DNA of 64,000 nucleotides from Escherichia phage vB_EcoM_P8. The stretch's first letter is position 1. Each line of letters begins with the position of its first letter. The notes beneath the pieces were generated by a model. The model was given only the letters and a program-made list of their open reading frames with translations. It made no database searches and had not been told where the DNA came from. The stretch lies in sequence record PV390659.2, one strand, 5' to 3'. Positions 42,320 to 46,362 of the stretch are shown here, piece after piece. The position numbers and the translations under genes are program-made.

Positions 42320-42610
42320 ATGATTCTTTATGCGAAAGTATCATCCATTGAAAATGGATATAAATATGATCAAGACGCGGCTAAAGCCTTGATTGATGAT
42401 TATGGCATTTTAACATGTTTTGAAGTTGAAAAGGTTTACATTGACCGTTCATCTTCTCAAGTTAAATTAGTGAAGGAAGACCGTAAATTTAATACAGTAA
42501 ATTTTGATTTCTTTATTGAAACAGAAAAAGGTCCTCTTGAATATGATATTTTCAAGAATCCTTTGGGTCTTGAATGTATTAAATATACTTACATTAATGC
42601 AGCGTGGTGA
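42320..42610 (+). CDS. hypothetical protein
   Basis: 96 aa ORF, tightly packed. Confidence 0.55.
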   Translation: MILYAKVSSIENGYKYDQDAAKALIDDYGILTCFEVEKVYIDRSSSQVKLVKEDRKFNTVNFDFFIETEKGPLEYDIFKNPLGLECIKYTYINAAW

Positions 42611-42612
42611 AA

Positions 42613-43128
42613 ATGAATATTTGTTTGGGTACTACAATTCCGCAGGGTTACGTAATTGATGTCACTACCTGGGAAAATGATGGTGACAACTATAAAACCA
42701 AAACACTGTTTGGCGTAGAAGAGCATGAAATCTTACAATTCCAATATCTTTTAAAGAAGTTTAAAAGCCGACATTCTAGTACTAAAATTGAGCACTATTG
42801 TGGTAATGCTTCGTTCAGTGAGCAATCGCTTTTTATCTATGAATACTTGGTTGAAGGACTGTTCTCAGACCAACTTTATCCAGAATTCATTAAAAAGGTC
42901 TTTGATATAGAAGTTGACCTTGGTAATAAATCTGAAGAAGATGAAGAACGTGTATTTGACTTATTCTTTGTGAATGGTAATAAAGTGCTTGAAGGACTTA
43001 TTAATATTTTAGGTAATGCTTCTGAGTATTATGATTATGATTTTTTGCGTGTAGTTGAGAGTGTTAAATACTCTTATATAGAAGAAGAAATTGTTTTGCC
43101 GACCGTTAAAATGTTTAATTTGCTTTAA
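42613..43128 (+). CDS. hypothetical protein
   Basis: 171 aa from ATG 42613 (ORF track GTG 42604). Confidence 0.55.
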   Translation: MNICLGTTIPQGYVIDVTTWENDGDNYKTKTLFGVEEHEILQFQYLLKKFKSRHSSTKIEHYCGNASFSEQSLFIYEYLVEGLFSDQLYPEFIKKVFDIEVDLGNKSEEDEERVFDLFFVNGNKVLEGLINILGNASEYYDYDFLRVVESVKYSYIEEEIVLPTVKMFNLL

Positions 43129-43214
43129 GAATTATTTGTTATTATTAACTTATATCGCATTGATTAATACCCTCTATCATCAAGGGTTCTTTCCTGAGAG
43201 CCTTTGTTAATAAT

Positions 43215-43287
43215 TGGGAATTAGCCAAGTTGGTAAGGCACTGGATTTTGATTCCAGGATGCAAAGGTTCGAGTCCTTTATTCCCAG
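43215..43287 (+). tRNA. tRNA-Gln (anticodon UUG)
   Basis: Cloverleaf read by eye: acceptor TGGGAAT/ATTCCCA, anticodon loop TTTTGAT, T-arm GGTTCGAGTCC. Confidence 0.85.
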
Positions 43288-43288
43288 C

Positions 43289-43375
43289 GCGAGAATGGTC
43301 AAATTGGTAAAGGCACAGCACTTAAAATGCTGCGGAATGATTTCCTTGTGGGTTCGAGTCCCACTTCTCGCACCA
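43289..43375 (+). tRNA. tRNA-Leu (anticodon UAA), class II, CCA encoded
   Basis: Acceptor GCGAGAA/TTCTCGC, anticodon loop CTTAAAA, long variable arm. Confidence 0.85.
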
Positions 43376-43380
43376 AATTT

Positions 43381-43454
<74 letters not shown>

Positions 43455-43464
43455 ATTTAATTTA

Positions 43465-43538
43465 CTCCGTGTAGCTCAGTTTGGTAGAGCGCCTGATTTG
43501 GGATCAGGAGGTCCAAGGTTCAAATCCTTGTATGGAGA
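43465..43538 (+). tRNA. tRNA-Pro (anticodon UGG)
   Basis: Anticodon stem CCTGA/TCAGG, loop TTTGGGA, T-arm GGTTCAAATCC. Confidence 0.8.
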
Positions 43539-43540
43539 CT

Positions 43541-43630
43541 GGAGGCGTGGCAGAGTGGTTTAATGCACCGGTCTTGAAAACCGGCAGTCGCTCCGGCGAC
43601 TCATAGGTTCAAATCCTATCGCCTCCGCCA
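43541..43630 (+). tRNA. tRNA-Ser (anticodon UGA), class II, CCA encoded
   Basis: Acceptor GGAGGCG/CGCCTCC, anticodon loop CTTGAAA, long variable arm. Confidence 0.85.
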
Positions 43631-43635
43631 GTTTT

Positions 43636-43711
43636 GCTGATTTAGCTCAGTAGGTAGAGCAACTCACTTGTAATGAGAAGGTCGGCGGTTCGATTCCGTC
43701 AATCAGCACCA
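43636..43711 (+). tRNA. tRNA-Thr (anticodon UGU), CCA encoded
   Basis: Acceptor GCTGATT/AATCAGC, anticodon loop CTTGTAA. Confidence 0.85.
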
Positions 43712-43712
43712 A

Positions 43713-43787
43713 GGCCCTGTAGCTGGAAGGTTCAAGCAAGCGACTCATAATCGTCAGATGGTGGTTCAATTCCACCCAGGGCCACCA
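43713..43787 (+). tRNA. tRNA with CAU anticodon (Ile2-type, as T4 tRNA-Ile; Met cannot be excluded from sequence alone)
   Basis: Acceptor GGCCCTG/CAGGGCC, anticodon loop CTCATAA, CCA encoded. Confidence 0.8.
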
Positions 43788-43800
43788 AATTAAGAATTAA

Positions 43801-43887
43801 GGGGAGTTATCCCGTAGAGGTAGCGGTGTGGACTGTAAATCCATTGTCATTGCGACTCGGGTGGTTCGACTCCATCACTCCCCACCA
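43801..43887 (+). tRNA. tRNA-Tyr-like (anticodon GUA), class II
   Basis: Perfect 7-bp acceptor GGGGAGT/ACTCCCC, anticodon stem GTGGA/TCCAT with loop CTGTAAA, long variable arm, T-arm GGTGGTTCGACTCCATC, CCA encoded. Confidence 0.65.
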
Positions 43888-43891
43888 ATTT

Positions 43892-43966
43892 GGATGTGTA
43901 GCTCAATGGCAGAGCGATCGCCTGTTAAGCGATTGGTTATAGGTTCGAATCCTATCACGTCCGCCA
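43892..43966 (+). tRNA. tRNA-Asn (anticodon GUU)
   Basis: Acceptor GGATGTG/CACGTCC, D-arm GCTCAATGGCAGAGC, anticodon stem ATCGC/GCGAT loop CTGTTAA, CCA encoded. Confidence 0.75.
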
Positions 43967-43970
43967 AATC

Positions 43971-44046
43971 CGAGGCATAGCTCAGAAGGAAGAGCAAGGA
44001 CCTTCTAAGTCCTAGGTCGTAGGTTCGATCCCTACTGCCTCGACCA
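43971..44046 (+). tRNA. tRNA-Arg (anticodon UCU)
   Basis: Perfect acceptor CGAGGCA/TGCCTCG, anticodon loop CTTCTAA, CCA encoded. Confidence 0.85.
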
Positions 44047-44062
44047 ATTAAGTGAGGAAAAT

Positions 44063-44413
44063 ATGAAAGGTAATGTTTATTTAGTAGTTCATGATTTAAC
44101 ATTCTATTTTAATCATAATGACACTGTTATTTCTGAACGTGTAATTAATTTACTTTATCAGCATGCAGATTATGTTTATGTCGAAAACGAATATGGTCAT
44201 TGGCAATTTCTCAAAAATCGTTCATTTGGTTTAGATGGTTACGAATATTTTGAACGTAAAGACCTTTTAGATAAAATTCCGTTATCTACACAATATCAAA
44301 ATCATAAGTCTTTATATAAATGCCGTCCAATTCGAAATGCTGAATCTGCGTATGAAGTAATTGATTTATGGCGTAAACGTCGTGAACAGGTTGATGCTTT
44401 AAAAGAATACTAA
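44063..44413 (+). CDS. hypothetical protein between tRNA cluster and structured RNA region
   Basis: 116 aa ORF, GAGGAAA RBS 7 nt upstream. Confidence 0.6.
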   Translation: MKGNVYLVVHDLTFYFNHNDTVISERVINLLYQHADYVYVENEYGHWQFLKNRSFGLDGYEYFERKDLLDKIPLSTQYQNHKSLYKCRPIRNAESAYEVIDLWRKRREQVDALKEY

Positions 44414-44419
44414 GAAACC

Positions 44420-44720
44420 GGGTCGCTACCGGTAAGTCGTCGGACTGATGTTCCCTGGAGTATAGTTTCTCCCACAGTTTTACTGTGTTCTGATTCTTTA
44501 CTATCACAGCAGAAACGGCGCACCGAATTATCGATTCGAGGAAATATCTTTGCCGTAAGCCGAGTAGCGTTTTTGGCGGAACGTTCGGATATGGTCGAGA
44601 TATGGCCTTTTAAAAATATTGAGTAGCGTCAACTGCTTAATAACCGGGTTCGAATCCCGGCGTTTCGTACAAACACTTGCCTTAGCAGGTGGAACCCCGA
44701 CAAGGTTGCCGCAAGGCTTA
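44420..44720 (+). ncRNA. non-coding structured region, possibly T4 small stable RNA (species 1/2, rnaC/rnaD) homologs
   Basis: About 300 nt with no ORF, tRNA-like T-arm CCGGGTTCGAATCCCGG at 44643-44659, ends at a strong terminator; location after tRNA-Arg matches my recollection of T4. Confidence 0.4.
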
Positions 44721-44747
44721 GCCCCGACCGAAAGGTTGGGGCTTTTT
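44721..44747 (+). terminator. rho-independent terminator (copy 1 of duplicated element)
   Basis: GCCCCGACCGAAAGGTTGGGGC hairpin plus TTTTT. Confidence 0.8.
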
Positions 44748-44797: not shown

Positions 44798-45271
44798 ATG
44801 AAATCATATGCTCAATTTTTAAATGAAGCGGTGTTAAATGAAGCATCTAGCACCGAAATTCAAGCTGTCGCAAAAGCAGCCATTGCAGCGGGTAAATATT
44901 CCTATAAAGATGCTTCTGACGAATCACGATTCCAGTTTGCTCGCGACATGAAAGCAGAAGGATTTACGGGAAATGCAGTTAGTATGGCCTGGAAAAGTTT
45001 AGTTGCTACTGGCGCTGCTTTTGCAAAGGCTTCAGGTAAACCTGCTCCTAAAGCAGATCCTAAAGCTGCACAAGAAAAAAATATCGTTAAAGGAATTATC
45101 GCTAAATATGAAGCTATCCTTAAAGAGCTTTTAGTAATCAAAACCGAAGGCCAAAAGTTAGCCCGCGCTTATAGTTTCAAAGATAATCCACATGCTCACT
45201 CTCTTGAGTATGTTGAAGACATCCAAAAAATTATTAAAGACCGCATTTGGTCTGCTAAACAAATCAAATAA
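44798..45271 (+). CDS. internal-protein-like virion protein candidate (N-terminal capsid-targeting-like sequence)
   Basis: 157 aa; N-terminus MKSYAQFLNEAVLNEA resembles IPI targeting sequence with L-x-E-A cleavage-like sites; own TATAAATA late promoter; flanked by identical terminators. Confidence 0.6.
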   Translation: MKSYAQFLNEAVLNEASSTEIQAVAKAAIAAGKYSYKDASDESRFQFARDMKAEGFTGNAVSMAWKSLVATGAAFAKASGKPAPKADPKAAQEKNIVKGIIAKYEAILKELLVIKTEGQKLARAYSFKDNPHAHSLEYVEDIQKIIKDRIWSAKQIK

Positions 45272-45278
45272 CATTTTA

Positions 45279-45305
45279 GCCCCGACCGAAAGGTTGGGGC
45301 TTTTT
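45279..45305 (+). terminator. rho-independent terminator (copy 2, identical sequence)
   Basis: GCCCCGACCGAAAGGTTGGGGC hairpin plus TTTTT. Confidence 0.8.
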
Positions 45306-45831: not shown

Positions 45832-46362
45832 ATGTCTCTTTATACCGAACTGAATGAAACTTCCGAAAAATCTTTTGATGGTATCTTATCAATAATGCAA
45901 AAGCAGGTATTAGAACAGCTTAGTGAAGCCGCAAGCAACGGACATAAGGCTTGTCGAATCCCAAGCCCACATCGTCGCCTGTATGAACGCCCTCTTATTA
46001 ATTGGCTAGAAAGCGAAGGTCTTACAGTTAAGATTTGTCCTGCCAAATTTGATGTCCCACGTATTCTTAATATTTACTGGGATAAACCGATTGAGAAACC
46101 GATTGAGAAAAGTGAACCTTGGGTTGTCAATGTAAAAACATATGATAATGGATGCTCACTTGAGGTGTCTGCTGTAATTAAAGGCACTCACGGTGAAAAA
46201 TCGTGGGGTTGGCCTGGTAAAGATAAAGAAATCGTGTTAAGTGTAAAAGCTACTAGTATTAGTACTCCTATAGCTAAAAGCATTATCGCCGCCGCTGTTG
46301 AAGAAGCTGAACGAATTTGTAAAATTAAAAATAGTTTACATCTCTTAAATAGCATGATATAA
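45832..46362 (+). CDS. hypothetical protein
   Basis: 176 aa ORF behind early promoter; contains a 12-bp tandem duplication (PIEKPIEK). Confidence 0.6.
   Translation: MSLYTELNETSEKSFDGILSIMQKQVLEQLSEAASNGHKACRIPSPHRRLYERPLINWLESEGLTVKICPAKFDVPRILNIYWDKPIEKPIEKSEPWVVNVKTYDNGCSLEVSAVIKGTHGEKSWGWPGKDKEIVLSVKATSISTPIAKSIIAAAVEEAERICKIKNSLHLLNSMI

Follow-up and report, generated by a model that had tools for sequence, protein, structure and literature searches.

A tRNA-Tyr(GUA) gene and a tRNA-Asn(GUU) gene that T4 lacks were found in the tRNA cluster of Escherichia phage vB_EcoM_P8, within the 64-kb stretch of DNA that was analyzed here (the window), and they are best explained as part of a T2-type variant of the T-even tRNA region. 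In this explanation, which we consider probable, both genes yield functional tRNAs that back up the tyrosine- and asparagine-tRNA pools, and the pair was displaced in T4 through SegB. The pair is already known: the region was described in 2008, the two genes are annotated in many of the approximately 400 matching records, and a counter-defense role for the tRNA-Tyr gene was reported in 2026. There is little new in the window itself, which holds one more copy of a cassette present in T2 and in hundreds of relatives. The locus serves as a textbook case of a tRNA content that is set by defenses that cut tRNAs and by a selfish homing endonuclease, SegB, that overwrites the cassette.

Gene content of the tRNA cluster

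Over the whole 64-kb window, ARAGORN predicted ten tRNA genes, all in a single run on the plus strand. The first six, tRNA-Gln (positions 43215 to 43288), tRNA-Leu (43289 to 43375), tRNA-Gly (43381 to 43454), tRNA-Pro (43465 to 43539), tRNA-Ser (43541 to 43630), and tRNA-Thr(UGU) (43636 to 43711), are common to T4 and together occupy 43215 to 43711. They are followed by a T2-type allele of tRNA-Ile(CAU) (43713 to 43787; Rfam score, 58.1 bits), a class II tRNA-Tyr(GUA) of the phage type with a long variable arm (43801 to 43887), tRNA-Asn(GUU) (43892 to 43966), and a T2-type allele of tRNA-Arg(UCU) (43971 to 44046; Rfam score, 68.1 bits). This is the order, from Gln to Arg and including Ile(CAU), Tyr, and Asn, that had been read in a preliminary description of the DNA, and the coordinates given there for the Tyr and Asn genes were the same as those obtained with ARAGORN, both genes also scoring above the Rfam gathering score. 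The T4 genome (NC_000866) was found to have eight tRNA genes, none of them for Tyr or Asn, as had been stated in that description. Two outcomes had been named there as arguing against the reading, namely, scoring of the genes as pseudo-tRNAs and the presence of the same ten genes in T4, and neither was encountered.

Past tRNA-Arg, also on the plus strand, lies an ORF of 116 amino acids (44063 to 44413), which was recognized from the ORF list and from primer matches as the trna.2 ORF of phage T2L and which forms the right part of the cassette considered below. The primers used in 2008 for the trna.2 probe (#24 and #25) match the window at 44065 to 44093 and at 44381 to 44405, respectively, with one mismatch each. 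The trna.2 ORF matches phrog_3355, a family of unknown function (E = 8.5e-55); this ORF and three others that are inserted relative to T4 matched only PHROG families that have no assigned function, and Pfam gave nothing significant. Homologues of two T4 stable RNA genes, rnaD (44413 to 44524) and rnaC (44531 to 44669), follow on the plus strand, as seen by blastn and by pairwise alignment with T4. Beyond the 3' end of rnaC, a consensus scan revealed a terminator-like hairpin (44720 to 44743, plus strand), a 10-bp stem with a T run behind it, at which the tRNA transcription unit probably ends; T4 transcription is presumed to stop past the species I RNA gene (PMC2330249). Matches to the sigma-70 promoter consensus inside the cluster were no more numerous than in shuffled sequence, in a scan that is blind to T4 middle promoters. 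By analogy with T4, a polycistronic precursor is the probable source of both extra tRNAs, which the host synthetases would charge. The cluster is 99.9% identical to that of Escherichia phage vB_EcoM_BMB16 (Tequatrovirus), for which the same ten tRNAs are annotated.

Relation to the tRNA regions of T4, T2, and other phages

The order of the T4 cluster is Gln, Leu, Gly, Pro, Ser, Thr, Ile, segB, Arg, rnaD, and rnaC, and the genes that flank the cluster in the window are collinear with those of T4. On the Gln-to-Thr side, positions 43109 to 43732 of the window are 95.7% identical by blastn to positions 72636 to 72014 of T4. Homology to T4 then ends at 43732 and restarts only at 44413 with rnaD and rnaC; the rnaD-rnaC stretch is 90% identical overall, with 96 of 116 positions identical in rnaD and 136 of 139 in rnaC by pairwise alignment. 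The break falls approximately 20 nt into tRNA-Ile(CAU), the first 20 or so nucleotides of which are T4-like and set the left boundary of the cassette, whereas the remainder of the gene is divergent. Likewise, the tRNA-Arg(UCU) of the window has no useful similarity to that of T4. In T4, the interval between these points contains the 3' part of Ile, segB (a GIY-YIG homing endonuclease gene), and Arg, and it lacks Tyr, Asn, and trna.2; in the window, it contains the 3' part of Ile, Tyr, Asn, Arg, and the 116-amino-acid ORF. Because homology is lost inside the Ile gene and is regained at rnaD, and because Ile and Arg are present as different alleles, the difference from T4 cannot be a mere insertion or deletion, and the segment from 43733 to 44412 (from about nucleotide 20 of Ile to the start of rnaD) is an alternative cassette to the T4 version. 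The preliminary description had instead proposed the gain or loss of tRNA genes within an otherwise collinear cluster; this does not hold, since the whole cassette has been swapped, with different alleles of Ile and Arg and with segB on the T4 side.

The segment from 43713 to 44413, comprising Ile(CAU), Tyr, Asn, Arg(UCU), and trna.2, is the T2L-type tRNA region that was published in 2008. Brok-Volchanskaya et al. (2008, NAR; PMC2330249; EMBL AJ880101 and AJ884578) determined the sequence of the tRNA region in T2L, RB1, and RB3 and found that segB is absent from all three and that four additional tRNA genes (Met, Tyr, Asn, and Arg) are present together with the ORFs trna.1 and trna.2; the tRNA region was also described there as nonessential for phage development. 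The window agrees with this type in that there is no segB between Ile and Arg, that Met/Ile, Tyr, Asn, and Arg form one run, that trna.2 lies past Arg, and that a predicted SegB site lies in the Asn gene, but it does not have trna.1. In the T2 genome (AP018813), the order is Gln, Leu, Gly, Pro, Ser, an ORF, Met/Ile, Tyr, Asn, Arg, and an ORF of 351 nt. Identity between the window and T2 was 75 of 75 positions for Asn, 86 of 87 for Tyr, 74 of 75 for Ile, and 75 of 76 for Arg. The alignment with T2 is interrupted from 43651 to 43713, where trna.1, which T2 has between Ser and Met/Ile, is replaced by the T4-like tRNA-Thr(UGU), so that there are ten tRNAs in the window and nine in T2.

The absence of the pair from T4 can be related to the specificity of SegB. 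This enzyme cuts tRNA genes at their 3' ends, at a 27-bp site with the T-arm core GGTTCRANTCC that is often followed by CCAR, and its most preferred site lies wholly inside the tRNA-Asn gene (PMC2330249). When a T4 derivative (B20) was crossed with T2L, segB was recovered in 99.6% of the progeny, and an approximately 1,250-bp region of T2L was excluded (PMC2330249). Within the window's tRNA-Asn gene, the SegB core GGTTCGAATCC was located at 43942 to 43952 and CCAA at 43964 to 43967. A SegB target is predicted in this gene from the located motif and from the complete identity of the gene to its T2 counterpart; it was placed at 43942 to 43967 by motif match and without strand assignment, the bounds of the 27-bp site being approximate. 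In a mixed infection, SegB would cut within tRNA-Asn, and repair would swap the whole cassette for the segB-bearing T4 version, so that T4 would lack both Tyr and Asn because the tRNA-Asn gene contains a cleavage site preferred by SegB. Within the 64-kb window itself, a tblastn search with T4 SegB gave no match at an E value of 10 or less.

The Tyr-Asn pair is widespread. It was found at a query coverage of at least 80% in 395 records of the phage collection, and the best match was at least 99% identical in 213 of the 648 records that matched the Tyr-Asn stretch. The matches include the RB3 record AJ884578, in which tRNA-Tyr(GUA) and tRNA-Asn(GUU) are annotated. In 211 related records (at least 80% coverage), an additional 114-nt spacer and a tRNA-His(GUG) gene lie between Asn and Arg. 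By comparison, T4-type segB was found in 131 records of the phage collection at the same coverage, which indicates that the arrangement in the window is the commoner one among sequenced relatives and that the T4 form is the less common. Phage T6 (AP018814) is a mosaic in which a T4-type Ile gene is followed by Tyr, then directly by segB and a T4-type Arg gene; it lacks tRNA genes for Asn, Pro, and Ser. The T6 tRNA-Tyr gene is identical to the window copy at 85 of 87 positions, the entire variable arm included. In its variable arm and T arm, the T5 tRNA-Tyr gene does not differ from the window copy (UGUCAUUGCGACUCGG-GUGGUUCGACUCCAUC), whereas the sequences of the acceptor, D stem, and anticodon stem differ, for an overall identity of approximately 85%.

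Related Tyr genes also occur in rV5-like phages (95.7 to 96.7% identity), T5-like phages, and others, as well as on plasmids of approximately 90 to 115 kb. When the Tyr-Asn stretch was compared by blastn with 5,426 E. coli genomes (E ≤ 1e-5), no chromosomal match was obtained, and the 273 places that matched were on plasmids only. The two plasmids that were inspected look like an SSU5-like phage-plasmid (with Asn, Tyr, Thr, and Ser) and a P1-like phage-plasmid, as judged by size and gene content. A recent capture of the two genes from the host chromosome was ruled out by the absence of a chromosomal match and by the many differences from E. coli tyrU and asnT.

Integrity of the tRNA-Asn and tRNA-Tyr genes

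The tRNA-Asn gene matched the Rfam tRNA model RF00005 with a score of 74.1 bits (E = 7e-17; gathering score, 29), and the full model (positions 1 to 71) was covered. The ARAGORN cloverleaf has standard pairs throughout, two of which are G-U wobbles. The anticodon is gtt, and the 3' end reads ...GTCC-G-CCA, which gives G73 and an encoded CCA. Both G73 and the anticodon GUU are AsnRS identity elements, and the gene has all three features (GUU, G73, and CCA) of a bacterial tRNA-Asn.

The tRNA-Tyr gene passed the same model only narrowly, with 30.2 bits against the gathering score of 29, and in a permissive Rfam scan the tRNA-Sec model gave the top match of the clan, with 34.4 bits, below its threshold of 47. 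By ARAGORN and by alignment with E. coli tyrU, it is a class II tRNA with a GUA anticodon, a long variable arm, G1-C72, A73, and CCA; of these, G1-C72, A73, and the anticodon GUA are TyrRS identity elements. An encoded CCA had been described for both genes and was seen in both. Clean acceptor stems and canonical T arms had likewise been attributed to both. The fold of Asn is a standard cloverleaf, but that of Tyr is not fully canonical: the D stem drawn by ARAGORN (UCCC/GCGG) contains a C-C mismatch, and in the register that covariation supports, 4 nt separate the acceptor stem from the D stem. Viral contigs were scanned by pattern for phage tRNA-Tyr genes, which were then extracted with ARAGORN, and 14 distinct members of the same type were aligned. 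Across these 14 homologues, 99.4% of the cells in the cloverleaf were paired, changes on both sides were present in 12 of the 24 pairs, and compensatory changes were present in four of the five helices. The alignment also distinguished between two registers of the D arm. With a 4-nt connector (UAUC), the D stem is CCGU/GCGG, is 100% paired in the 14 homologues, and includes a compensatory change from C-G to U-A; with a 2-nt connector, only 62.5% of the D stem is paired, and one pair is never formed. The computed energies were -27.5 and -20.8 kcal/mol, respectively. Thus, the tRNA-Tyr departs from the canonical arrangement, in which the acceptor and D stems are joined by 2 nt (positions 8 and 9). 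The Rfam model also takes CCGU/GCGG as the D stem but moves the acceptor stem over by 2 nt to accommodate it; such a move would abolish the ACCA end, and the covariation of the acceptor stem contradicts it.

The T5 tRNA-Tyr has the same architecture of connector and D stem (UAUU and CUGU/GCAG). A conserved 4-nt connector from the acceptor to the D stem therefore appears, from these alignments, to be a structural peculiarity of the phage tRNA-Tyr family that is common to the active tRNAs of T5 and T6. The covariation and the T5-like architecture indicate that the tRNA-Tyr is a sound tRNA with a family-wide oddity and not a pseudogene, and the 4-nt connector is no argument against its function.

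Proposed functions of the two tRNAs and rival explanations

The preliminary description had cited the proposal that phage tRNAs replace host tRNAs depleted by defense nucleases, and for Tyr this idea is upheld by experiments in a close relative. During infection by T6, the EcB88 Septu system, consisting of the ATPase PtuA and the HNH nuclease PtuB, cleaves the variable arm of E. coli tRNA-Tyr at C48/A49 (Chihara et al. 2026, Nat Commun; PMC13096335). In the same study, overexpression of the T6 tRNA-Tyr restored plating of T6 on Septu, mutants of T6 that escaped Septu had amplified a 718-bp tRNA-Tyr/segB unit, and deletion of the tRNA-rich region sensitized T6 to Septu; T4, which has no Tyr gene, could not escape, and T2 was resistant (PMC13096335). 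The T6 tRNA-Tyr is itself cut by Septu at C48, which indicates that it protects by dosage and not by resistance to cleavage; indeed, wild-type T6 is only partially protected, and full escape takes amplification of the gene (PMC13096335). Similarly, the T5 tRNA-Tyr, which has its own strong promoter within an approximately 8-kb tRNA-rich region of the T5 genome, neutralizes the PtuAB of retron-Eco7, and rescue was likewise obtained with E. coli tRNA-Tyr when the strong phage promoter drove it (Azam et al. 2024; PMC11555353). Moreover, in another study that reports rescue from the PtuAB of retron-Eco7 by phage tRNA-Tyr genes, tRNA-Tyr alone was enriched in a screen of 245 coliphage tRNAs against PtuAB (PMC12445682). 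The tRNA-Tyr of the window has the sequence features expected of such a counter-defense tRNA, given its close identity to that of T6 and the variable and T arms that it shares with T5; its variable arm is 2 nt longer than that of the host in the alignment with tyrU. From this likeness, we infer that it does the same job as the tRNA-Tyr of T6 and T5. It would add to the tyrosine-tRNA pool, such that phage translation could go on while the PtuAB of Septu or retron-Eco7 cuts the host tRNA-Tyr. Since there is no segB in the window, SegB-driven amplification of the Tyr gene may be out of reach for this phage.

For tRNA-Asn, one defense to consider is PARIS, whose AriB nuclease cuts host tRNA-Asn(GUU) as a secondary but biologically relevant target at U36-A-A-U-C|C41; in tRNA-Lys, the substitution U39A abolishes cleavage (PMC12409363). 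The OLD nuclease of P2 also cuts tRNA-Asn, more slowly than tRNA-ThrU. The tRNA-Asn of the window reads U36-A-A-G39-C-G41 where the host has UAAUCC, and the AriB motif UAAU is thus destroyed; the tRNA-Thr(UGU) of the window reads UAAUGA where the host has UAAUCA. U39 was absent from 24 of 37 distinct viral tRNA-Asn(GUU) sequences, a biased sample of fetched viral loci that has no bacterial control. Variants of the T5 tRNAs for Lys, Thr, and Asn inhibit PARIS (PMC12409363), but the phage of the window has no tRNA-Lys(UUU), the main target of AriB. T4, which has no Asn gene, was rescued from PARIS by the T5 tRNA-Lys alone, and Asn was thus not limiting there (PMC12409363). T-even phages, this cluster included, lack tRNA-Lys(UUU), and T6 is strongly restricted by both PARIS and OLD (PMC13096335), which argues that an AriB-proof tRNA-Asn would not defeat PARIS by itself. 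Tentatively, its most likely function is as back-up for a depleted tRNA-Asn pool; the phage tRNA would sustain the supply of asparagine-tRNA when the host tRNA-Asn is cut.

We weighed this reading, back-up of both pools, against others. Simple codon supply, the classical view, in which the Tyr and Asn tRNAs are kept just to boost translation of an AT-rich genome and have no role in defense, is possible but doubtful. Over the 19,166 codons of 86 ORFs in the window, Tyr and Asn codons are used at 45.1 and 56.0 per 1,000, respectively, and approximately 75% of them end in U; in E. coli, the corresponding values are roughly 28 to 29 and 39 to 40 per 1,000. The rescue obtained with the host tRNA-Tyr shows that rescue from retron-Eco7 and Septu is a matter of dosage, so that supply is the operative variable either way, and supply and defense are not mutually exclusive because the defense effect is itself one of dosage. 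However, codons for Lys (72.9 per 1,000) and Asp (63.2 per 1,000) are used more, and yet the cluster has no tRNA for either; T4, with a similar composition, copes without Tyr and Asn; the nearly identical T6 tRNA-Tyr has a direct phenotype linked to defense; and the same combination of Tyr, Asn, and Thr recurs in unrelated phage-plasmids. It is less probable still, although worth considering, that tRNA-Asn, along with the tRNA-His of the 211 relatives, is a cleavage-proof substitute directed against a defense nuclease not yet linked to T-even phages, either a Toprim enzyme like AriB or OLD or an undescribed nuclease specific for the GUN family of tRNAs, and that, separately, the 4-nt connector of the phage tRNA-Tyr alters recognition by a nuclease or modification enzyme while charging is kept.

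In the preliminary description, cleavage of the anticodon by nucleases of the colicin E5 type was suggested. In such a reading, Tyr and Asn (and His in relatives) would be kept as members of the GUN, or queuosine, anticodon family and would replace cut tRNAs or evade the cut. Tyr(GUA), Asn(GUU), and the His(GUG) of the 211 related records do account for three of the four members of the GUN family, and a hypothesis that joins this family to anticodon nucleases is in print (van den Berg 2023, eLife; PMC10264068). Nevertheless, we consider this reading very unlikely. The anticodon loops, CUGUAAA in Tyr and CUGUUAA in Asn, match E. coli tyrU and asnT exactly, so the loop mutations that predict insensitivity, i.e., an anticodon loop unlike that of the host isoacceptor (PMC10264068), are absent, and nothing points to evasion of an E5-type nuclease. 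The differences from the host lie instead in the anticodon stem of Asn (positions 39 and 41) and in the variable loop of Tyr. Furthermore, colicin E5 is a toxin that acts between bacteria, the papers on tRNA-targeting phage defenses that were consulted report no E5-like antiphage system, and the nucleases demonstrated to act on tRNA-Tyr, PtuAB of Septu and of retron-Eco7, cut the variable loop. Asp, the fourth GUN member, was not found in the clusters of the window, T4, T6, T2, or G50, and the paper on the Schlafen defense names no Tyr, Asn, or His target. The remaining reading, in which Tyr, Asn, or both would be pseudo-tRNAs or decaying remnants in a mobile cassette, is effectively refuted. 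It could draw on the low score of Tyr with the generic tRNA model (30.2 bits) and its subthreshold score with the tRNA-Sec model (34.4 bits), on the mismatch in the D stem predicted by ARAGORN, and on the dispensability of the tRNA region (PMC2330249). Against this stand the 74.1 bits of Asn, the compensatory changes and 99.4% pairing of Tyr, and the conservation of the pair at 99% identity or more in 213 of 648 records; in addition, the T6 and T5 tRNA-Tyr, which have the same unusual D arm, have been seen by northern blotting and are biologically active.

A phage-type tRNA-Tyr family

The tRNA-Tyr(GUA) gene of the window belongs to a phage-type family in which the connector between the acceptor and D stems is 4 nt long and the D stem (CCGU/GCGG) is fully paired, as seen in the 5' part of the gene (43801-43826). 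In tRNAs, this connector is usually 2 nt long. The connector reads UAUC in the window, UAUU in T5 (L131:300-387), and UAGU in two phage-plasmids (L005 and L006, both at 2507-2593), and the tRNA-Tyr of T6 (L004:2969-3055) falls in the same 4-nt connector family. The 4-nt register is backed by covariation, and the borderline Rfam score and spurious tRNA-Sec match of the window tRNA-Tyr were attributable to this connector.

Of 5,426 E. coli genomes, 269 have plasmids of approximately 90 to 115 kb bearing a phage-type tRNA-Tyr gene that shares its connector and variable arm with the rest of the family. The plasmid matches cover tRNA-Tyr and part of the neighboring tRNA at about 81 to 85% identity, with one shorter match at 91%. 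The two plasmids that were inspected, of 109 kb (L005:2427-2673) and 94 kb (L006:2425-2673), look like SSU5-like and P1-like phage-plasmids in size and gene content. In these plasmids, tRNA-Tyr adjoins Thr plus either Asn or Arg; therefore, the Tyr/Asn/Thr combination recurs in unrelated mobile elements. Closer relatives were found in rV5-like phages, including Escherichia phage V5, which belong to an unrelated family. Their tRNA-Tyr genes (records H52, H53, and H189 to H193; genomes of about 137 to 140 kb) are mostly 94.6 to 96.7% identical to that of the window, which is far closer to the rV5-like gene than to the host gene. This identity suggests that tRNA-Tyr has been exchanged between phage families.

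Other tRNAs of the cluster

Only 4 nt separate tRNA-Asn from tRNA-Arg in the window (43966-43971); in 211 related phage records, a tRNA-His(GUG) gene and a 114-nt spacer lie between these two genes (for example, L129:2316-2509). The GUN (queuosine) family has four tRNAs, of which Tyr, Asn, and His account for three; the fourth, tRNA-Asp, was not seen in the clusters of the window, T4, T6, T2, or G50.

The tRNA-Thr(UGU) of the window (43636-43711) reads U36-A-A-U-G40-A41, compared to UAAUCA in E. coli thrU, and this single change lies at the nucleotide adjoining the published cleavage point of AriB, the PARIS nuclease. A27 and A43 are unpaired at the top of its anticodon stem. Shortened anticodon stems have been reported for phage Thr tRNAs resistant to OLD, the P2 nuclease.

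Stable RNAs and open reading frames around the cluster

The homologue of rnaD (T4 stable RNA, species 2) lies at 44413-44524, its start abutted by the stop codon of trna.2, and is identical to T4 at 96 of 116 positions; it has diverged much more than the homologue of rnaC (species 1; 44531-44669), which matches T4 at 136 of 139. Two identical 24-nt terminator-like hairpins (AGCCCCGACCGAAAGGTTGGGGCT; 44720-44743 and 45278-45301) bracket an ORF of 157 aa (44798-45271; phrog_2280, a family of unknown function) that T4 lacks; the arrangement suggests that the ORF was inserted between the two copies of a duplicated terminator. Two further ORFs of unknown-function families, neither with a Pfam match, are missing from the corresponding positions of T4: one of 174 aa just upstream of tRNA-Gln (42604-43128; phrog_2290) and one of 176 aa (45832-46362; phrog_6869), where T4 has e.7.

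In public records, T6 segB (L004; AP018814, 65756-66421) is mislabeled "serine recombinase." Implausible structural-protein names are likewise attached to many small ORFs of T2 (L130; AP018813), such as "tail sheath monomer" for the 402-nt trna.1 ORF.
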